A stretch of DNA of 64,000 nt from Promethearchaeota archaeon (GTDB taxonomy: Archaea > Asgardarchaeota > Lokiarchaeia > Sigyniarchaeales > SOKP01). A model generated the notes under the pieces. That model worked only from the letters and a program-made list of their open reading frames with translations. It had not been told where the DNA came from and did not search any database. Positions 1,958 to 57,588 of the stretch are shown here, one piece after another. The stretch covers positions 31,276-95,275 of the forward strand of contig JAFGOA010000223.1 of NCBI GenBank assembly GCA_016926735.1. The letters run 5' to 3'. Each line of letters opens with the position of its first letter. Within the stretch, counting starts at the first letter, position 1. Both the position numbers and the translations under genes were made by a program.

Positions 1958-2055
1958 TTTTTGAAAGTTTAAGATTTTTTTTTAGGTATTTTATTCTAAT
2001 TTGATATAATTTAAAGAGGGAAAAATAGGACCCGGAGCGGGAATTGAACCCGCGT

Positions 2056-2084
2056 TTCCTCAGCATAAGAATAATCTTAAACTT
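2056..2084 (-). other. tRNA-His intron 2 (29 nt, variable loop), BHB type
   Basis: 4-bp helix CCTT/GAGG (one T.G). 3-nt bulges AGA and AAA. 9-position inner helix AGTTTAAGA/TCTTATGCT with one T.T mismatch and loop TTAT. Excision leaves a 4-nt variable loop AGAC. Confidence 0.7.
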
Positions 2085-2114
2085 CTAAGGATTCACAGTC
2101 CCCAATACTAACCA

Positions 2115-2144
2115 TTATACAAATTACAGTAGAACTGGAATTTT
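2115..2144 (-). other. tRNA-His intron 1 (30 nt, D-loop, between nt 15 and 16), BHB type
   Basis: 4-bp helix GTAT/GTAT (2 A-U plus 2 G.U). 3-nt bulges AGA and AAT. Inner hairpin AAATT-C-CAG/CTG-T-AATTT. Excision gives the canonical D-loop AGTGGTTA. Confidence 0.75.
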
Positions 2145-2488
2145 CTATACAATCCGGGTCATAAATAACAATAATATTATCTAATTTATATTTCTAAAAA
2201 AATTTTAGCTTTTAATAAGCAATTTGATCAATGATATTATGATTTTTGTTTTAAAATAATTTAAAAAGATATAAATAAGAATTTTAGAGATTTTAGAATG
2301 TATTTAAGCTCTTGAAAAAATTAAAATTAAGGATAAGAAGTCTGGAAGATTTATTTCATTCTAAATACTAAACAATATGTTTTTAAGTTAATTATTTTAA
2401 ATATTATTAAGTCAAACTAATAAATTTTTAATTTTTATTCTGATTTAATCCTAATTAGAATATAGAAGATCTTGGAAATTTGATTGAT

Positions 2489-9430: not shown

Positions 9431-10579
9431 TTATTTTAATTCTTCAAATTTCTTTCCTTTAAGTTGCTTATGCCAATAATGTGGTTTTGGTTTTTTAATA
9501 TTCCATTTTAAACATATTTCATTAACAATCCTTGGATATACATTATATATTTCACATATTTTTTTAATTGGCATTTTCCAAACTAATTTTATCAGTTCAT
9601 CCTTTTGAATGGAGTCTTCAAAAATATTTTTAGATGCAACTCTAAAATATTTCCTCTTTCGCGATAAACTATCTGGAAAATTATCTAACATTTCATTAAA
9701 TAGTTTTCCGCCCAAACTAAAATAATAATTCCCTTTACCATCGGGATTGATTTTATGAGGAATATTAAATCTTTTTTTTATTTCTTCTAAAATTAATTTA
9801 CTACCAATATGAAATTGATTAGTCCCTTCTTTTCCATCACCATCAAAAAAACCTAGTAAAAATGCCAGATCTAATTCTCTATTATCTAAATTAGGAAATC
9901 TTGTTCTTTTTTTACTACTTTTTACATAACCTAATGTGTATAGATCACTTTGAACATTAGAATTTTTAAAAGTAATCCTTACATATGTTCTTAGTTCATT
10001 TTTAGTCATTTTTGTTCGATATTTCTTGTATTTAGGATTTAAACCTATCGCTTTACAATACCTATCTATTAAAATTTCATCATTTTTGCTTAATTCAAGT
10101 TTTAATTCTCCTCTTTCTCCTAAATAAACTTCAGCCCACAATATTCCAAGCCAATAAGCTTTATTTTTTGAATTAATTTTTTTAAAGTAATTTATATTTA
10201 AATCAAGATGATAGTTTAAAACTTTTAGACCTTTTTTTCTAGATATTGGTAATTCTTCATTTGATTCTTGGTATTTCTTAATAAATTTTAATGTATTCTT
10301 CCCACGTAAGCCAAAATAAGCTTTAATATTATTACTCCATTCGTTTAATTCATCTAAAGCAATTTTAAATTGAGGATTCACTTTAATATTTCTTATAATT
10401 CTTTTTATACGTCTTTCATAATCACATAATATAAGACTTAATTTTTTATAAGATAAACTTCCATTATGAATTATTTTAACTTTAAAACCATTAATAAATA
10501 AGGTGGATGATACAATCTTAAAAATCTCGTTTCTTAAATCTTTTATTAATTCTGATGCAGAATAAGTAAGTCTTCTCAT
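9431..10579 (-). CDS. LAGLIDADG-family homing endonuclease-like protein with C-terminal HTH
   Basis: Two LAGLIDADG-type motifs (KAYWLGILWAEVYLG and LAFLLGFFDGDGKEG). The C-terminus PIKKICEIYNVYPRIVNEICLKW is HTH-like. Confidence 0.75.
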   Translation of the reverse strand: MRRLTYSASELIKDLRNEIFKIVSSTLFINGFKVKIIHNGSLSYKKLSLILCDYERRIKRIIRNIKVNPQFKIALDELNEWSNNIKAYFGLRGKNTLKFIKKYQESNEELPISRKKGLKVLNYHLDLNINYFKKINSKNKAYWLGILWAEVYLGERGELKLELSKNDEILIDRYCKAIGLNPKYKKYRTKMTKNELRTYVRITFKNSNVQSDLYTLGYVKSSKKRTRFPNLDNRELDLAFLLGFFDGDGKEGTNQFHIGSKLILEEIKKRFNIPHKINPDGKGNYYFSLGGKLFNEMLDNFPDSLSRKRKYFRVASKNIFEDSIQKDELIKLVWKMPIKKICEIYNVYPRIVNEICLKWNIKKPKPHYWHKQLKGKKFEELK

Positions 10580-10763
10580 TCCTCAATTATTTTGTTGTGT
10601 TTATTTCTGGTCTTTTTTCTATTTTTATCTAATTGAATTACTTCTCTAGTTTAAAGAATCTTTATTGATTTATATGGTTTTTATTAATATATATTTTAAT
10701 AGAGTCTGCAGATTTTTTTAAATAAAATATTTATATTATAACAAGAAAAAAAAAATAAAAAAA

Positions 10764-11608
10764 TTAAAGTCCTTTTGGACCGTTTTCATATATGCTATAT
10801 GCTTCATCAATAGACTTATTCTCATGAACTATAGCTCTTACTGCTTTAATCATGCCAATAGGGCTGTCACTTTGGAATATATTTCTTCCCATATTTGCGC
10901 CTATAATTATAAAAAATAGTTATAGTCTACGCCGACAGCTCCTTTATCAATAGCATTCCTTGCCATAATTAAAGCATCACGCTCCTCAATCTTCTTTCCA
11001 CCAGCTATTACAACCGGTACTGGAGCGATAGAAGTGACTTCGTCGAAGTTCTCACAATAATATGTTTTTACAAAAGTGGCACCTATTTCTGCTGCCATTC
11101 TACTTGCCATACCCAAATATCTTGCATCTCTAACCATTTCCCGTCCAACTGCTGTTACTGCTAAGACTGGAATACCATAATCTTGTCCCCAATTTACAAT
11201 CTTAGTTAAATTCATTAAAGATTGTTTTTCAAATTCACCACCTACAAAGATGGAACAGGTAATTGCTGAAACATTTAATCTTATCGCATCTTCAATTGTA
11301 ACATTTATTTCTTCATTTGAAAGTTCTTTTAACATACTTGCTCCGGCAGATACTCTTAGAACGATAGGTACATCAAAATCCGGTGAAACACAATTTCGAA
11401 GCATACCTCGTGTTAACATTAAAGCATCAGCATATTCAAAAAGGGGTTCTAACTTCTTAAAAGATTTTAACATTCCTGGGATATTGCCAAAATATTCATG
11501 AGTATGTATTAATTATACATATTTTCCATGATCGACAGCAAGCATGACGCAATGCCCAGATTTAGGTTTAATTATTCGGGATAATCTATTTTGCATTCCC
11601 CAATCCAT
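10764..11608 (-). CDS. class I aldolase of the DhnA family (fructose-bisphosphate aldolase / ADH synthase type), split into three exons by two BHB mini-introns
   Basis: Exons are 11608..11525, 11494..10927 and 10894..10764. The joined product is 260 aa. It has MLAVDHG-YFGNIPG, the Schiff-base Lys context ATFVKTYY, and GAVGVDMGRNIFQ. Unspliced, it contains an in-frame TAA and a frameshift. Confidence 0.8.
10895..10926 (-). other. aldolase intron 2 (32 nt), BHB type
   Basis: Helix GCGT(10932-10929)/GCGC(10900-10897). Bulges AGA and AAA. Inner helix CTATAA/TTATAG. Excision corrects the frame and gives GAVG-VDM-GRN spacing. Confidence 0.7.
11495..11524 (-). other. aldolase intron 1 (30 nt), BHB type
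   Basis: Helix CATG(11530-11527)/CATG(11500-11497). Bulges GAA and AAT. 9-position inner helix with one A.C mismatch and loop AATTA. Excision removes the in-frame TAA and gives AVDHG|YFGNIPG. Confidence 0.7.
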
Positions 11609-11733
11609 AGTTTTATCACTTATTTCTTATAATAATTTTATTTTGATATCGTAATAAGTAATGAAATTATTATAAATTTTAAGTTTAATAGCTAAAATAA
11701 GATATTTTAAAAATTTGTATTAAATATTGTTTT

Positions 11734-11997
11734 TTATTTCAATTCTGTTGTTTTGGTTGCCAAAATAAGATCTATTTTTTCATATCCTCTAATTATACCC
11801 TTTTGATCGATAAATACAACGAATTGATGATCAGAACAGACAATCCCTGCAGGAACATGTATTTTAACACAGCCAGATTCTTTTTTTGAAAAAATTTCTG
11901 TTGGAATTTTAACTATTTTATCAATTCCGCAAGTTGGACAAGATATATTGAACTCTCTCATGATTGATTCTAATTTCTTATAATTAATATTTAACAT
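11734..11997 (-). CDS. hypothetical zinc-ribbon protein
   Basis: 87 aa; CPTCG near the N-terminus with further Cys/His downstream. Confidence 0.45.
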   Translation of the reverse strand: MLNINYKKLESIMREFNISCPTCGIDKIVKIPTEIFSKKESGCVKIHVPAGIVCSDHQFVVFIDQKGIIRGYEKIDLILATKTTELK

Positions 11998-12087
11998 TTT
12001 TTCTTACTTAGATATATTAAATACTGAGAAGTCAAATAAAAATGTTCACTTTTCCTATGAAATAAAGGAAAAAAAATTAAAAAAAAA

Positions 12088-14721
12088 TTATTCTCTTTTT
12101 AGAATTTGTGAATTTTGAGTTGTGTATACAAACAATATAATTAGTATCATTGGTATAATCCCAATAAAAATGATACTATATATTCCTTCTAAAAGGGTAC
12201 TATCAAAAACTATTGGTATAAATAGAGTACCGAAAACATTGAAACAATAGTGAATAATAATACAAGGGATCAAGCTTCTTGTCTTAAAATAGGTATAAGA
12301 TAGGGTAATACCCATAAATGAAGCATATATTATTTGTTCAACTGTTGATAAAGGAGATTCACCAATAAGTGTTAGAAAATTGATTAGATGAGATAATCCA
12401 AATAGGAGTCCACACATTATAATGGTATTAATAGTATTATATTTTTCTTTAAATATTGATGTATTTATCCCTCGGAATGCTATCTCTTCCCAAATAGCTG
12501 GAATTAACATATATAGGAAAATAAAAGCTCCAAGTCCAAAATAGACCGTATCTAAAATATGGAAAATCCTATCAAAACTAAATGTATAGTTACCAAATAT
12601 TAAACTTCCCATATATAATGAGAATACAATGATTAAAAAGGATATGATTCCAATTAAAATATTTTTTATATAGTTTTGTTTGTTAGTAATTTTGATATCC
12701 TTTAAATATTGGTTTAATTTTTTCGATCCATATGGAAGTGACAACCATTTAGGAACTATTATAATAAAAATTAATGCTAAAACGCTAAATTCTGTAATTG
12801 GACCAACTATTCTCCTTATATTATTAAAACCTATTGGATCTATTATTGGATTTATGAATAATGATATTGTTAAATAGATTAAATTCAATACAATAAAGGG
12901 TAAACACCAATATAAAAGCAAAACAGCAATAGCTCCAAAAATAGGATTTTTTCTCAATGATCCTCCTGTTATATATGATTTATATCCTTTAAAAGAAGGA
13001 AACATCTTATCGAATGCAACAAATAACACACATAAAATTATTCCACCAATAAGTAACATAGCAGATGCTAAGAACCAAACTTCCATATATATTGAAGCTA
13101 AAACCATTATTATCGTAAAATTCAAGAATACAAGTCCTAAATTCATAAGACCAATTAGAAGCCATTTTCTTATCTTCTTTTCTTTATAGATTTCTTCTGT
13201 AATATATTTATATTTCATTTTGCCAAAAAGCATTATTTTCATCATAAATGCGATAAAAAGAAATCCTAAGGATATAGGCAATGCACATAATCCTACTATC
13301 ACAACCCAAAAGCTTTGTATGATTATTGAAGCGAATATAGTAGACACAATAAATGAAATTGATTGTATTATGATCATTAGTATTAATTTTGCTTTTGCTT
13401 GATCTCTTGGAAGAATTGGTAAGGAAGAGGTAATTGCAAATCCTGATTCTTCCATATTCATCAATCCCATCACAAGCATAAGTGGATTCATAGTACTTAT
13501 TATAAGTAAACTAACCATTAAAAATGATAATAGTTGTATATTAAGATCTGATACTTCTGTTAATCCTGAAGAGAATGAAATGATCATAATAATGGTCATG
13601 ATCATTGGCATGATTAATAACATAGCTGATTGAGGATCTCTTGCAGCTGTTGTCAAATCTTTTTTAATATATGCTTTTATTGGACCATATTTTGCTACCT
13701 CAATCTTTATTTCTTCAATATTTAGATCTTCGATTTTTCTTTTATATTTCTTTTCTTTTCGCCCTCCAATAACAGCTGATAATGATTTTAATGCTTTTCT
13801 ACTCATAAGATATGTTATTCCTAAAAATAATAGAAATCCAATAGTAGAAGTCGCCCATAATGATAATGATGTATTTGTTGGAGATATAAATAATGATATG
13901 AAATAAATTGGCGCGAAAGGATATGGAATTAAACTCAATATAAGGTTCCAAATATTTGTATATGGAGATAACGAAAAATAAGCAAGAGTACCTTCTAATG
14001 TAAAAAATACTAATTGTAATGTAATATTCATTCCAATAGAAAGACCAATAATCACACTAAATACTAAAATTTTCATTCTTGTAGATTTTTTTGAAGTGGT
14101 TTCAGGATTGAATATTACTCTGCTTACTCTTTCTCCAATGAAAATTAAGAAACATAAACAAAAAATGGCATTTGGAATTGAAATTAAGAAACTTAAAAAT
14201 GTTAATACTAAATTATGGGTAAATATAAACATCATTATTGGTATAGCTAAGCATAATGAAATTAATTGGAGATCTATACTCCTAAATAAAGTCATGAAAG
14301 CATATTTTCTCAATTTTGGTTTTGATATTGGCAATGTTCTTAACCAATAGAAAGATTCACCCGACATATATGCTCCCATTGTATATAATCCAAATAAAAC
14401 TAGATATGATAAATAGGATGTCATTAGTATAGAAAAAATTATTCCATAAGTGATTACTGTTATTTCCATATTACTATTGGGAACCAATAAATCTAAAACA
14501 TTAGGACCACTTACAAGATATATTAATGGTAATAAAACTATCATAAAAGAACTAATTATTTTAAGGAGCACTACCATATTACCTATATATTTCTTATTTT
14601 TCTCACATTTTTCCAAAAAACTGGCTTGTCTTGAACCTGCTTGTTTCATTTGGGCTTCATAAAAAACCTCGTGAGAAATAAATTTCGCCATAGAATAATA
14701 TTCTATAAATTTGTTTTTCAT
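12088..14721 (-). CDS. large polytopic membrane protein: ABC-2-like permease region fused to a C-terminal CPBP (CAAX/Abi) intramembrane protease domain
   Basis: 877 aa with more than 20 hydrophobic segments. The C-terminus carries CPBP motifs WEEIAFRG, FGLSHL and HYCFN. The gene is adjacent to, and co-oriented with, an ABC ATPase. Confidence 0.7.
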   Translation of the reverse strand: MKNKFIEYYSMAKFISHEVFYEAQMKQAGSRQASFLEKCEKNKKYIGNMVVLLKIISSFMIVLLPLIYLVSGPNVLDLLVPNSNMEITVITYGIIFSILMTSYLSYLVLFGLYTMGAYMSGESFYWLRTLPISKPKLRKYAFMTLFRSIDLQLISLCLAIPIMMFIFTHNLVLTFLSFLISIPNAIFCLCFLIFIGERVSRVIFNPETTSKKSTRMKILVFSVIIGLSIGMNITLQLVFFTLEGTLAYFSLSPYTNIWNLILSLIPYPFAPIYFISLFISPTNTSLSLWATSTIGFLLFLGITYLMSRKALKSLSAVIGGRKEKKYKRKIEDLNIEEIKIEVAKYGPIKAYIKKDLTTAARDPQSAMLLIMPMIMTIIMIISFSSGLTEVSDLNIQLLSFLMVSLLIISTMNPLMLVMGLMNMEESGFAITSSLPILPRDQAKAKLILMIIIQSISFIVSTIFASIIIQSFWVVIVGLCALPISLGFLFIAFMMKIMLFGKMKYKYITEEIYKEKKIRKWLLIGLMNLGLVFLNFTIIMVLASIYMEVWFLASAMLLIGGIILCVLFVAFDKMFPSFKGYKSYITGGSLRKNPIFGAIAVLLLYWCLPFIVLNLIYLTISLFINPIIDPIGFNNIRRIVGPITEFSVLALIFIIIVPKWLSLPYGSKKLNQYLKDIKITNKQNYIKNILIGIISFLIIVFSLYMGSLIFGNYTFSFDRIFHILDTVYFGLGAFIFLYMLIPAIWEEIAFRGINTSIFKEKYNTINTIIMCGLLFGLSHLINFLTLIGESPLSTVEQIIYASFMGITLSYTYFKTRSLIPCIIIHYCFNVFGTLFIPIVFDSTLLEGIYSIIFIGIIPMILIILFVYTTQNSQILKRE

Positions 14722-40448: not shown

Positions 40449-42410
40449 ATGGAAAAAAAAGAAAACAAAGATATACGGAGTTTTGTTGTTGTCTGTCGAT
40501 GTGGTATTAACATTTCAGAAATAATCGATTGTCCTTCCCTAGTTGAATTCTCTAAAAAATTACCTACTGTTGTTGATGCTGATGAATATATTAGTATTTG
40601 TACTGAACCAGGTGCAGAATTTATAAAAAAAAAAATGACAGAAGCTAATGCCAATAGATTGATTGTTGTTGCTTGTACCCCTAAAACTCATGAACCTGTG
40701 TTTAAAACTGTTCTTGAGTCGATGAATTTAGATCCTTCTTATCTTGAATTTGCAAATATAAGAGAACATAGTAGTTTTGTTCATAGAAATGATATTGAAG
40801 GTGCTCAAAAAGTAGCTAAAGATATAGTTAAATCTGCTGTTGCAAGAGCATCCTTGTTAGAACCTATTAAAATAAAAGAAGTAGATATCACCAAAGAAGT
40901 TTTAATACTTGGTGGAGGTGTTTCAGGGTTAACTTGTGCAATAGATCTAGCTGAAGAAGGGTATATAGTACATCTAGTTGAAAAATCTCCTACAATTGGA
41001 GGTAAGATGGCTCAATTAGATAGAACGTTTCCAACTGATGATTGTTCAATCTGAATTTTAGGACCAGTAATGTTACAAGCAGCGAGAACCAAAGGACTAA
41101 ATATATACACATATAGTGAATTAGAGAACGCTAATGGATTTGTCGGGAATTTTGATGTAAAAATCAGAAAAAGAGCAAGATTTGTAACAAATGATTGTAA
41201 TGGATGTGGTGCTTGTGAACCTGTTTGCCCTGCAATTAGTTCAAATGAATTTAATGAAGGATTAAATCCAAGATCAGCAATTTATACAGCATTTGCTCAA
41301 GCAGTACCCTCTATCGCACAAATTGATATGACAAAATGTATAAAATGTGGTCTATGTCAAAAAGCATGTGAACTAAATGCTATAGATTTTGATCAAAAAG
41401 ATGAAATTCAAGAGATAAAAGTAGGAGCAATTGTCGTAGCTACTGGTTGGGATGAATATATACCTCCTATTGGAATGTTAGGATTTAATATATATCCTAA
41501 TGTTATTACTCAAATGAAATTAGAGAGAATTCTTGCCCCAAATGGTCCTACAATCGGACATTTAGCAAGACCTTCTGATGGAAAAACACCAAAAAAAATC
41601 TTATTCATTCAGTGTGTTGGTTCACGAGATTTAAATAAAAATACTTATTGTAGCTCAGGAGTATGTTGTATGATTTCAATAAAAAATACAAAGCTTATTA
41701 AACAACATTATCCTGATTGCGAAATAACCGTAGCATATATGGATATTCGTGCAGCAGGAAAAGATTATGAAGAGTATTTTACAGCATCTAGAAAGGAAGG
41801 GATAAGATATATCAGAACTAATATTAGTAAGATAGAAGAAAATCTTGAAAATCACAATTTAATCATTAAAATGCAAAATACTCTCAGAGATTCTAAGAAA
41901 TTTCAGGAAAATGAATTTGAAATGGTTGTACTTTCTTGTGCTATGACTCCCCCTAGAGGAATAAAAAAAATACAAACCTTACTAAAATTAGAGACAAGCA
42001 GAGATGGCTTTTTCAAAGAATTTCATGCAAGATTGAATCCAATTGATACAAAAATACCTGGAATTATTCTTGCAGGGGTTAGTCAAGGTCCTAAATCTAT
42101 AGCTGAATCGATATCTCAAGGAAGAGCCGCAGCCTCATCCGCAGCTCGATTAATGAGTAAGGATAAATTTAGAATTGCTCTAATTAGAGCAAAAGTAGAT
42201 AAAGAAAAATGTGCTAAATGCGGTTTATGTGAATTTAATTGCCCTTATAATGCTATTACTTTGAAAGATGATGGCGCAGATGTTGATGAAATTTTATGTA
42301 GAGGATGTGGTTCATGTTTAGCTAATTGTCCATCAGAAGCAATAAGTTTAAGATATTATAAAGAGAATCAGTATGAAAAACAAATAGATGCGATTCTTGA
42401 GAATACATAG
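40449..42410 (+). CDS. hdrA: heterodisulfide reductase subunit A (HdrA) selenoprotein; in-frame TGA = Sec
   Basis: Track ORFs 40449..41054 and 41070..42410 are in one frame, separated only by TGA 41052-41054. That TGA sits at FPTDDCSI-U-ILGP, where HdrA homologs have Cys or Sec. FAD motif GGGVSG and four ferredoxin-type Cys clusters. 653 codons. Confidence 0.85.
41052..41054 (+). other. UGA selenocysteine codon in hdrA
   Basis: Aligns with the conserved Cys of the DCSxC motif. Confidence 0.75.
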
Positions 42411-44544: not shown

Positions 44545-46113
44545 ATGAGATTAATAGTAAAAAAAATAAATTTTGAAACTGGTAATATGAAAGACGTTGT
44601 GCTTAACCATAATGATGCTGAAAAAATAGGACAAAAAGTTGGAGAACGTGTTATTATTCAAAATATAAATACTAAAAACTTAAGTGAAAAATATTGGGTT
44701 GCTATATTAAAAATTTCATATTCAGATTCTATAGTAGCTCCAGGAGAAATAGGAATTTTTGCTGACACATTTAAAGATATAAAAAATTTAAAAGAAAATT
44801 CCAAAGTCTCAGTTTTAGCTGCTGAAGCACCTACATCATATAAAAATATCCAAAAAAAAATTAAAGGTTTTAAACTTAATTCTGATGAAATTCATAGTAT
44901 TATAAAGGATGCAGTATCTGGGAAATTGTCACAAATAGAAATTGCATCATTTATTACTGGTATTTCTATTAATAATATGGATTCTGATGAAATGACAGCA
45001 TTAACATTAGCAGAAGGTAACAGTGGAAGAAAATTTGATTTTGGTCCGGAAGTCTATGACAAACATAGTACATAAAATTGCACTCTGTAATTTTAGCTAA
45101 AAGGTGGAGTTCCGGGTAATAAAGTAACACTTATAATCGTTCCAATAATTGCAGCTGCAGGATTAATTATTCCGAAAACAAGTACTCGTGCTATAACATC
45201 TCCTTCAGGTACAGCCGATTCAATGGAGGTTCTAGCGCCAATCTCTTTTAATTCAGAAGAAGTAAAAGAATTTATCTCAAAAAGAGGAGCATGTATTATT
45301 TGGGGAGGTGCTTTAGATATAGCACCTGCAGATAATGTTTTTATAGAAGTTGAACGTCCACTTCATTTTGATCCTATGGGTTTAATGATACCTTCAATTT
45401 TAGCTAAAAAACTTAGTATGGGTGTAAAAAACCTAGTATTAGATGTACCTATTGGTAAAGGAACAAAATTTCCTACACTTAAAGATGGACAAAATTTTGC
45501 TCTCATATTCAATCAAATTGCCAAAAATATTGGTATTCATAGTGAGTGTGCTTTAACCTTAGCTCATCAACCTGTGGGTCACTGTGTTGGACCGGCAATT
45601 GAAGCTCAAGAAGCAATTTCTCTTCTGAGGGACTATAAAGTAGGACCTAATTCTTTAATAGAAAAATCAACTTCATTAGCAGGTATTCTTTTAGAGATGG
45701 CAGGAAAAGCTAAAAATGGAGAAGGACAATTATTAGCTAAAGATATCTTAAAATCAGGGAAAGCTTATACAAAAATGAAAGAAATTATTGAAATGCAAGG
45801 TGGTAATCCTAATATTTTGCCAGAAGATATAGAATTAGGTCCATATAAACTTGATATCTATGCTCAAAAATCAGGTCATATCACTCAAGTGGATAATGCT
45901 TTAATTAATCAAATTGCAAAAGCAGCAGGCTGCCCCTATTCTAAAACTTCAGGAGTTAGAATTTATAAAAAACAAGGTGCTAAAATAAATAAAGGTGATA
46001 TTATTTTTACAATCTATTCTAATACTGAAAATAAGTTAAAAAGAGCTGAAAAATTATACAATAGTTCTGGAGGGCCTATTATATTAGGAGGAATGCTCAT
46101 AGAACGTATTTAA
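44545..46113 (+). CDS. AMP phosphorylase (archaeal DeoA-type, thymidine phosphorylase family) interrupted by one 30-nt BHB intron
   Basis: Exons 44545..45071 and 45102..46113 give 512 aa. The spliced product has [49 protein letters not shown]. The N-terminal extension is typical of AMP phosphorylase. Confidence 0.85.
45072..45101 (+). other. AMP phosphorylase intron (30 nt), BHB type
   Basis: Helix TAGT/GCTA, bulges ACA and AAA, inner 7-bp helix TAAAATT/AATTTTA. The insert carries three in-frame stop codons. Confidence 0.75.
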
Positions 46114-56364: not shown

Positions 56365-56434
56365 TCAAATAACTTAAAATATATATTAGTTCGAATCTTA
56401 ATTTAAAAATAAAAATTCAAAAAATAGAGTTGTA

Positions 56435-57588
56435 TTGGAATTTCAATTTTTTATTCTGATAATACCATAAAGTGTCAAAATTGTGGATATAGTATAACAA
56501 AACCATATCCTAAAGAACATTTTTGTCCACGATGTGGAAAATATGTTCCTGAACTTACTGATAAATTAAATTTAATTAAAGATTCAAAAAAACCACAAGA
56601 ATTTAAGACACAAAAAACTCAAATTCCTTCAAAATTAAAAGGAAAAGTAAAAATTAAAGAATCTACTCCAAAATTATCTACAAATGGGAATATAATAGAA
56701 TTAAAAAAAGGAGAATTTGTAAAGTTAATTGGAATAACTTCTGTTAATCGAACTCCACTATTTTGTAGTAATGATAATTACTCTTATCTATTGGAATTAA
56801 CAAATAATCTTGATTATATAGCAACCAGTATTTTGGGAGGAGTTCTAGATAAAATGCTCCTTATTTCTCAAGAGACATATACTAAAGAAAAATGTCAATT
56901 CCTTGAAAAAGATGGGATAATATATCTTGTATATGGATTATTTCCAGATAAAAAGGGTAAGTGGTTATTAGAACAAATAGCAAAATACTATATAGAACTT
57001 TTAGAAAATAAAAATGCTGATAAATTAGATAAATTGGAACAATACGAAATAAATAATAAATTCAAAAGAATAATAAATTTTATTCTTCAAGAATATTTTA
57101 AACTTCAAGATGTTTTTTCTGATCAAGAAATACCTTCTGTTGAAGATAATCTTAGAGTCGATTATTTAGGTCTATCTTCTAAATCAATAGGAGTAATTTC
57201 TCTTTTAATTGGAAATGAATTAAATATAGATATTCCAGGTCAATTTGATGATCCTGCTGAAATGAAAGAGATGAAAGAATCTCTTCTTACAGCAAAGATT
57301 GAAGCTATTGCTGCGAATACCCTTGGTAATACTGGAGCAGTCCCTAGATGGATTTCTGTAAAATTGGGATTTCAAAGTTATAGATTTTTAACCTTTCGAA
57401 AATATCCAAACGACTTTTATCTCTCTCTTCTTTTGGATGGTAATCTTAAGAAATTAGATTCTGTAGAAAATGAATTAAAACCATCTCTTTTGAGAGTTAC
57501 TGAACAACAATTCACAGGGGATCTGAAAAAATATAACCTGCTTAAACCCGATTTGATAAGTTTATTTAAAAGAAAAAGAAATTTTTAA
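56435..57588 (+). CDS. zinc-ribbon protein with uncharacterised alpha/beta C-terminal domain; 5' end unresolved
   Basis: The frame is open from 56428 and encodes CQNCG..17 aa..CPRCG 100 codons upstream of the first canonical start (TTG 56791). There is no in-frame ATG/GTG/TTG before that. A TTG at 56435 joins the frame if a 17-nt BHL-type element (56443..56459) is removed. Confidence 0.45.

Follow-up and report, generated by a model that had tools for sequence, protein, structure and literature searches.

A candidate bulge-helix-bulge intron within the coding sequence of an LsrF-type gene from Lokiarchaeia

In the literature searched, papers from 2009, 2018, 2020, and 2025 mention cbf5 of Crenarchaeota alone as a coding sequence that carries an intron of the splicing-endonuclease type (PMC2738675, PMC7714728, PMC12397907). 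The cbf5 introns are 16 to 44 bp long, interrupt the codon of a catalytic residue or its motif, and in some cases shift the reading frame (PMC2738675). One further mRNA, HVO_1309 of Haloferax volcanii, carries a bulge-helix-bulge (BHB) intron in its 5′ untranslated region (UTR), for which EndA cleavage was verified in vitro (PMC7714728). No report of BHB introns in Asgard protein-coding genes was found in the literature searched, the coverage of which was incomplete and hence is no proof of absence. Here we analyze a 64,000-nucleotide (nt) stretch of Promethearchaeota DNA (contig JAFGOA010000223.1, positions 31,276 to 95,275; G+C content, 26%), hereafter the window, from a Lokiarchaeota metagenome-assembled genome (MAG) with the locus-tag prefix JXA99. 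We propose that 32 nt on its minus strand, positions 10926 to 10895, are very probably an archaeal BHB intron within the coding sequence of an LsrF-type gene, and we refer to this element as intron 2.

The cbf5 pre-mRNA introns (Watanabe 2002; Yoshinari 2006; Yokobori 2009, PMC2738675) are the closest described system. Like them, the elements considered here are short (30 to 37 nt) and of BHB type, interrupt a conserved or catalytic motif, shift the frame in some cases, contain no open reading frame (ORF), and are gained and lost patchily. Both also occur in lineages that have a heterotetrameric EndA of broad specificity. The host of the cbf5 introns is an RNA-modification enzyme, whereas the host here is a metabolic LsrF-type enzyme of Asgard archaea (Lokiarchaeia) with up to three introns per gene. 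Moreover, a second gene within the same 64 kb is interrupted, a LAGLIDADG-like gene adjoins the host gene, and splicing was demonstrated by experiment for cbf5 but is read from the sequence here. The HVO_1309 intron is likewise a BHB element in an mRNA (PMC7714728) but lies in an untranslated leader, whereas a reading frame is interrupted in the present case.

In the canonical pre-tRNA BHB, the first two anticodon bases lie in the 4-bp helix and cleavage between positions 37 and 38 falls after the second base of the bulge; tRNA introns range from 11 to 129 nt (PMC4090602). A relaxed form of the motif, HBh′, belongs to the family for the (alpha-beta)2 and epsilon2 enzymes (PMC4090602, PMC5829648), and Asgard archaea have an (alpha-beta)2 EndA with an L1 loop and broad specificity that is associated with relaxed-BHB cleavage (PMC5829648). 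In some Asgard archaea, introns occur in more than 90% of tRNA genes, often at noncanonical positions (PMC11291895). Noncanonical tRNA introns with relaxed HBh′ or hBH structures (Marck & Grosjean 2003; Thermoproteales; Atabeyarchaeia/Freyarchaeia, PMC11291895) share the architecture and size range of the elements described below, and an insert in the variable region of a tRNA-His gene in the window has the same signature. The difference is that the substrate considered here is an mRNA and that the central helix is made of codons.

The LsrF-type gene occupies 10764..11608 (minus strand, as for all coordinates within it), encodes a class I aldolase/thiolase of the DeoC/LacD family, and is divided into three exons by two mini-introns. 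Exon 1 (11525..11608; 28 amino acids) was delimited from the ORF 11513..11608 and from the orthologue alignment. Exon 2 (10927..11494) runs from YFGNIPGM to GAVGV and includes the first base of an aspartate codon, and exon 3 (10764..10894), identified from the ORF 10764..10892, supplies the last two bases of that codon followed by MGRNIFQ through GPKGL and the stop codon. An initial annotation made from the sequence had noted that an ORF breaks off here, that its conserved continuation lies downstream in another frame, and that removal of 32 nt (10895..10926) corrects the frame. Each of these points was confirmed, the first ORF being 10907..11473 (188 amino acids) and the continuation 10764..10892. 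Deletion of 10926..10895 joins GTA G^AT ATG GGA (carets mark predicted cuts or junctions), which reads GAVGVDMGRNIFQ, and leaves the frame open to the stop codon at 10764. The recreated GAVGVDMGRNIFQ is invariant in 15 uninterrupted Lokiarchaeal orthologues (G217, V218, D219, M220, and G221 in the alignment) and aligns without a gap to LsrF of Escherichia coli. Together with removal of intron 1, the deletion yields a coding sequence of 783 nt for a protein of 260 amino acids.

The spliced product was assigned by profile and structure comparison. It matched NF006081 (3-hydroxy-5-phosphonooxypentane-2,4-dione thiolase, LsrF) with 387 bits against a cutoff of 297, over residues 1 to 256 of 260, and PF01791 with an E value of 1.5e-19. 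This corrects the initial annotation: the gene is of LsrF type and not an ADH synthase, for which the score was 179 bits and under the cutoff; the ADH synthase models all stayed below theirs. Against E. coli LsrF (PDB 3GKF), the product shows 55% identity in an alignment of 255 residues, and both exon junctions are free of gaps; at junction 1, AFDHGYFQG of LsrF aligns with AVDHG.YFG. The motifs DHG, VKTYY, and GVDMGRNIFQ all align to LsrF and are invariant among the orthologues, and we take VKTYY to hold the Schiff-base lysine of LsrF. Its nearest relatives are uninterrupted proteins of about 260 amino acids from Lokiarchaeota/Promethearchaeota MAGs (80 to 88% identity), and no identical full-length protein was present in a set of 5.8 billion proteins, in which the best match was 88% identical. 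Gene callers report intron-bearing LsrF-type genes as fragments of 188 to 228 amino acids plus 42 amino acids. Exon 3 was annotated as a separate 42-amino-acid ORF in the window and in four other lineages, and the same DNA in a Logan assembly was called as pieces of 188 and 42 amino acids.

The RNA sense of intron 2 can be folded into a BHB in the register that restores the frame. The 5′ strand of the central helix, GCGU (10929..10932), is exonic and part of the codons GGC GUA, and it pairs with GCGC (10897..10900) at the 3′ end of the insertion through three Watson-Crick pairs and one closing wobble (G-C, C-G, G-C, and U·G). A 3-nt bulge sits 3′ of each central-helix strand: the first is AG^A (10926..10928), with the predicted cut after 10927, and the second is AA^A (10894..10896), with the predicted cut after 10895 and a sequence that is invariant in seven distinct sequences of the intron. 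The inner helix and its loop, h′, span 10901..10925 and contain about ten pairs (9 to 10), formed by CUAUAA (10925-10920) with UUAUAG (10906-10901) and extended by three further pairs. All helices and both bulges proposed by the initial annotation were present at its positions, and an unconstrained RNAfold minimum free energy (MFE) structure of 10885-10945 contained both helices and the AGA bulge. The predicted junction, GGCGUAG^AUAUGGG (10927 joined to 10894), places the cut after the second bulge base, just as the 37/38 rule for canonical tRNA introns would have it (a rule that PMC4090602 implies). We note that the product alone cannot fix the cut to the base, because shifting it by one base in the 3′ direction on both sides gives an identical product.

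To estimate how often such a motif arises by chance, the insert was shuffled with the exons kept fixed, and shuffles were counted if, in the frame-restoring register, they gave a 4/4 central helix together with six or more inner pairs. Only 0.06% (5.8e-4) of 200,000 shuffled 32-nt inserts did so. Shuffles for three separate introns (intron 2, intron 1, and an intron in a second gene of the window described below) gave chances of about 6e-4, 3e-4, and 1e-3 for a BHB in the required register.

Intron 2 was also found in relatives. Among other GTDB species representatives, one genome, L010 (JAGXOA010000101.1), shares both window insertions, site for site, and has an additional one of 36 nt, while nine other Asgard LsrF loci are uninterrupted. 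Scanning JGI metagenomes with a gapped DNA pattern recovered copies of intron 2 at loci L082, L083, and L084; intron 1 is missing from L084, where a 37-nt intron lies at a site coding GG^KK. Further lineages (L085/86, L087, and L089/90) were found by way of a neighboring LAGLIDADG-like gene, and L087 also has intron 1. At the window locus and at all of these loci, which together provide seven distinct sequences, intron 2 is 32 nt long and at the same site. The copies come from independent assemblies, namely, the NCBI JXA99 MAG and its Logan counterpart SRR13394437, JAGXOA01, SDBT01, and SDNY01, as well as the JGI assemblies Ga0209976, Ga0114923, Ga0568890, and Ga0493988.

Comparison of the seven sequences indicated that the pairing is maintained despite divergence. 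The copies are 50 to 88% identical (16 to 28 of 32 bases), with identity at third codon positions near 50%, and 94.3% of intron 2 pair cells hold standard pairs, including every cell of the central helix. Six pairs have changed on both sides, five of them among the ten inner pairs, and 0 of 500 shuffles reached the observed values. When the partners were slid by 1 to 3 columns as a control, pairing fell to 23 to 47%. Compensatory changes include two replacements of C-G by U-A, one in the central helix (the pair 10931/10898, which is U-A in L010) and one in the first pair of the inner helix, and a replacement of A-U by G-C deeper in the hairpin. The first bulge is UGA in L082 and L083, and the U·G closing pair of the central helix is kept in six of the seven copies. 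The pairing belongs to the sense RNA, because U·G would be a C·A mismatch on the opposite strand. As a separate observation, synonymous positions of the exon codons that pair with the intron (GGC GUA; 10929..10937) are nearly fixed in intron-bearing alleles; L010 alters both partners of the pairing, and intron-less orthologues use GGA GUA, GGC GUC, and similar combinations. Since the central helix is built from codons, these sites are tied to the intron, and we conclude that intron 2 constrains synonymous sites of its host gene.

Purifying selection acts on the flanking coding sequence. The spliced coding sequences of the window and L010 differ by 81 synonymous and 29 nonsynonymous changes, giving a synonymous divergence (dS) of 0.76 and a ratio of nonsynonymous to synonymous divergence (dN/dS) of 0.065, and comparison of the window with L084 gave a dN/dS of 0.035 with synonymous sites saturated. 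Selection covers all exons, including the 42 codons of exon 3. A dN/dS of 0.065 at a dS of 0.76 between two lineages that both carry the insertions argues that the gene is not a pseudogene, and insertions 1 and 2 predate the split of the two lineages, because both share them. Moreover, splicing in silico by the same cut rule gave intact ORFs of 260 to 264 amino acids in the window, L010, L084, L085, L087, and L089. These six intron-2-bearing genes are scattered in the Lokiarchaeal LsrF tree: the smallest clade containing all of them takes in 121 of its 126 leaves, and neighbors without the intron lie at 92 to 95% amino acid identity to each gene.

The other introns of the gene obey the same geometry. 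Intron 1 (11495..11524) is 30 nt long, contains an in-frame TAA, and forms a full hBHBh′ motif composed of an outer helix of three pairs (11533-11531 with 11493-11491), a central helix of CAUG paired with CAUG (11530-11527 with 11500-11497), bulges GA^A (11526-11524) and AA^U (11496-11494), and an inner hairpin of eight pairs (11523-11501). The predicted junction is CAUGGA^UAUUUUGG (11525 joined to 11494). An intron of 27 nt, which would give DHGKYFG, was ruled out by alignment; in the 15 uninterrupted proteins, DHG directly precedes YFGN, and thus intron 1 must be 30 nt long, the only removal that yields the DHGYFGN of the orthologues. Shuffles reached a 4/4 central helix and at least six inner pairs in the required register with a frequency of 2.7e-4. 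In the three sequences available (the window, L010, and L087), which are too few for the shuffle test of covariation, pairing extends to 97.9% of cells, with two double changes. Intron 3 occurs in relatives and not in the window; it is 36 nt long in L010 (L010:4615-4650) and a frame-shifting 37 nt in L084 (L084:1818-1854), both at the GG^KK site. Its central helix is AGGU with GCCU or CGGU with GCCG, and its bulges in the two versions are AA^U or AA^A with AA^A.

A BHB scan of the window followed by a homology filter identified one more gene with such an intron. The scan (4-bp helix, 3-nt bulges, and inner helix) returned about 10,000 to 13,000 raw hits per strand, ORF-merging filters left 78 to 240 candidates, and only the two LsrF introns and an intron in an AMP/thymidine phosphorylase gene (44545..46113, plus strand) passed the homology check. 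The phosphorylase intron (45072..45101, plus strand) is 30 nt long, contains an in-frame TAA, and has a central helix of UAGU with GCUA, bulges AC^A and AA^A, and a 10-bp inner helix. Its removal fuses two ORFs into a 512-amino-acid AMP/thymidine phosphorylase with three Pfam domains in order, and the junction DKHST^GGVPGNK aligns without a gap to the Thermococcus kodakarensis enzyme 4GA5. The window alone contains three BHB mini-introns, spread over two metabolic genes; in relatives, a single gene can hold as many as three.

The same signature is found in a tRNA gene of the window. A tRNA-His(GUG) gene with two inserts (about 2037..2160, minus strand), missed by ARAGORN and recognizable by its G-1:C73 pair, has a 29-nt insert in the variable region that forms a BHB with a central helix of CCUU and GAGG closing in U·G and with bulges AGA and AAA. 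For the 30-nt insert on its 5′ side, between U8/N9 and the D stem, none of the registers giving the mature sequence had a strict BHB. ARAGORN, applied to every BHB-spliced variant of this region, was so permissive that its output was of no use. The introns of the LsrF, AMP-phosphorylase, and tRNA-His genes share a U·G closing pair, a first bulge of the form A/G-N-A, and AAA or AAU as the second bulge, and the cut rule of intron 2 also fits intron 1 (30 nt), both versions of intron 3 (36 nt in L010 and 37 nt in L084), the phosphorylase intron at 45072..45101, and the variable-region intron of tRNA-His.

We propose that the gene is transcribed with the insertion included and that the insertion is then removed from the RNA. 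In the pre-mRNA, the 4-bp central helix would arise by pairing of GCGU, the final bases of the exon, with the GCGC found at the insertion's 3′ end, and the AGA and AAA bulges and the 10-bp inner hairpin would flank it. EndA, which in Asgard archaea is an (alpha-beta)2 enzyme with an L1 loop that accepts relaxed motifs, would cut both bulges, and an RtcB-type ligase would join the exons. The mature mRNA would then read GAVGVD^MGRNIFQ across the junction and, after like removal of the 30-nt intron 1, would encode the complete 260-amino-acid enzyme. Motif, register, conservation, covariation, and purifying selection on the exons are direct readings of the sequences, from which we infer splicing itself. 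The same inference extends to the cutting and joining of the RNA in the cell, to the enzymes that would carry them out, and to the fate of unspliced transcripts.

Several observations weigh against removal as an intron. The initial annotation described intron 2 as a BHB element, and although the 4-bp helix, the two 3-nt bulges, and the inner helix stood, the outer helix h is a single G·U in the window (G·U or G-C across copies) and the element falls outside the strict hBHBh′ definition. Because the outer helix is nearly absent, the motif is of the relaxed HBh′ form. The hairpin of intron 2 is no more stable than dinucleotide shuffles (z = −0.38), that of intron 1 gave a z of −0.77, and such unremarkable stability of both is neutral to mildly negative evidence. 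The strict BHB conformer of intron 1 has a free energy of −2.4 kcal/mol versus −11.3 kcal/mol for the MFE structure, which retains the central helix yet pairs parts of the bulges. If transcription and translation are coupled, unspliced mRNA would give truncated products. Finally, L082:654-1100 (minus strand) is a 5′-truncated LsrF remnant that covers only residues 122 to 259 and retains intron 2; the A-run at its intron 3 site is longer by one A, and there is an early stop. L082 is either a decaying copy or a poor assembly, and individual copies can decay. The initial annotation had named decay of close relatives with additional lesions as a sign against splicing, and such decay was seen in L082 and not in the window, L010, L084, L085, L087, or L089.

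The remnant in L082, still with its insert, would fit a gene inactivated by small insertions, the BHB-like folds being fortuitous hairpins of AT-rich inserts, and so would the splitting of the gene by gene callers and a hairpin stability not above that of shuffles. Such a pseudogene is nevertheless very unlikely, as dN/dS is 0.035 to 0.065 between lineages that share the inserts, six genes are free of other lesions, the length and site of the insert are conserved with covarying pairs, and for the three separate introns a BHB in register would arise by chance at frequencies of only about 6e-4, 3e-4, and 1e-3. Also very unlikely is a real conserved structure with another role, for instance in regulation or processing, where EndA would cut but no ligation would follow, or as a hairpin that binds protein, with the enzyme being produced by other recoding or as fragments. 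Covariation proves structure and not ligation, and EndA also processes substrates that are not introns, such as rRNA precursors and a 5′ UTR (PMC7714728). What argues against another role is that canonical cuts restore both motif and frame at three or four independent sites (30, 32, 36/37, and 30 nt, some of these lengths not being divisible by three) and that purifying selection acts on every exon, the 42-codon exon 3 included.

Translation could also continue across the insert by ribosomal bypassing (hopping) or frameshifting, and the hairpin and nearby stop codon resemble what we take to be the take-off context of T4 gene 60. For intron 1, however, the take-off codon would be GGA and there is no GGN at the landing site, and for intron 2, nothing that matches GUA/GAC precedes AUAUGG. 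We reject bypassing because matching take-off and landing codons are lacking; it would moreover leave unexplained the strict 4-bp helix and 3-nt bulges and the occurrence of the same motif in a tRNA gene, and we consider recoding of this kind highly improbable. Since every sequence considered here comes from a metagenome assembly, an assembly or sequencing artifact was also weighed, as was excision of the insert at the DNA level before expression. Neither is credible: independent assemblies made in separate projects have an insert of equal length at this site, the copies have diverged with compensated substitutions, and the G·U pairs point to RNA. We conclude that 10926..10895 is very probably a BHB intron of the LsrF-type gene, removed from the mRNA.

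The remaining candidates from the window were not interpreted as introns. BHB hits that would join HisG with HisD, two ParA-Fer4 genes, a DNA ligase with its neighbor, or HypB with LbH were rejected, as Pfam shows separate complete genes in each case. In an HdrA-like gene (40449..42410, plus strand), the split between ORFs of 201 and 446 amino acids (40449..41054 and 41070..42410) is not an intron and is instead an in-frame TGA (41052..41054) in the context FPTDDCSI-U-ILGP. This context (FPTDDCSI-TGA-ILGP) is, we assume, the cysteine/selenocysteine site of HdrA, and the TGA probably encodes selenocysteine. Elsewhere, at 56428..57588 (plus strand), about 120 open codons, a zinc-ribbon-like CxxC...CxxC stretch among them, precede the first ATG, GTG, or TTG at 56791; the start could be noncanonical, or a first exon could be missing. 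BHB candidates that would join this frame to the upstream hisC look spurious.

A free-standing LAGLIDADG-like gene of 382 amino acids (9431..10579, minus strand) lies 185 nt downstream of the intron-bearing LsrF gene. Its score against PF14528 is 16.4 bits, below the cutoff of 22.5, but Asgard proteins with a PF14528 domain are homologous to it over its full length (E values of 1e-40 to 1e-63); LAGLIDADG-like motifs were recognized by eye as YWLGILWAEV (near residue 145) and LLGFFDGDG (near residue 243). A homologue is directly downstream of the LsrF gene in five of eight intron-bearing loci, these being the window, L084 (2132-3145), L085/86 (L085:3987-5120), L087 (2706-3872), and L089/90 (L089:4001-5158), and in all five it lies 50 to 190 nt downstream. 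The member in L084 is 33 to 35% identical, lies on the opposite strand, and scores 34.4 bits against PF14528. The gene is absent at the nine intron-less Asgard LsrF loci and also from the short available flanks of the intron-bearing L010, L082, and L083. The association is partly ascertained, because three of the positive loci were found through that gene.

Archaeal rRNA BHB introns encode LAGLIDADG homing endonucleases, and in collaborative homing, as for cyanophage psbA and F-CphI, an intron without an endonuclease is paired with a free-standing endonuclease gene. Intron 2 resembles these systems in being an ORF-less intron at a highly conserved site with a LAGLIDADG-family gene beside its host, both of them patchy in distribution. 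It differs in that the window copy of the gene is below the Pfam cutoff, no co-conversion signal was seen, and L010 and L083 have the intron but no LAGLIDADG-like gene in the available flank. Third-position identity near intron 2 and exon 3 was not clearly higher among intron-bearing alleles (0.54 versus 0.49 to 0.51), and with no clear co-conversion signal there is no support for recent transfer at the DNA level. Given the partial ascertainment and the missing co-conversion signal, collaborative homing is offered as a hypothesis and not as a finding. The LAGLIDADG-like gene is possibly linked to mobility of the intron, as a candidate homing partner.

A wider proposal, which we hold only tentatively and consider rather doubtful, is that BHB mini-introns have spread generally into protein genes in a group of Lokiarchaeia and that intron 2 may, beyond this, be part of a composite mobile unit together with the free-standing gene of the LAGLIDADG family just downstream. 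If so, these Asgard archaea would routinely need the tRNA-splicing machinery for splicing of mRNA. The endonuclease would cut intron-less alleles at the site coding for GVDMGRN, and the intron would shield the allele of its host. Collaborative homing of this kind would be a route of DNA-level mobility not previously described for BHB introns that lack an endonuclease.

In eukaryotes, HAC1 and XBP1 mRNAs undergo unconventional splicing by Ire1 together with RtcB or Trl1. The proposed splicing of the LsrF-type mRNA is similar in being a structure-guided excision, independent of the spliceosome, of a short intron that changes the frame, with joining by a tRNA ligase. HAC1/XBP1 splicing differs in its endonuclease, Ire1, in its stem-loop motif, and in being eukaryotic and regulated by stress. 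For the Lokiarchaeal gene, the proposed mechanism is the known EndA/ligase pathway, and the novelty lies in the host gene, the multiplicity of introns, the Asgard lineage, and the linked LAGLIDADG-like gene.

Because gene callers fragment interrupted genes, metabolic reconstructions from Asgard MAGs may miss them or score them wrongly. The presence of the introns varies among close relatives, which provides a natural system for the gain and loss of BHB introns, and the association with the LAGLIDADG-like gene makes a mechanism of mobility directly testable. Protein-dependent splicing of mRNA may be commoner than known in the closest archaeal relatives of eukaryotes.

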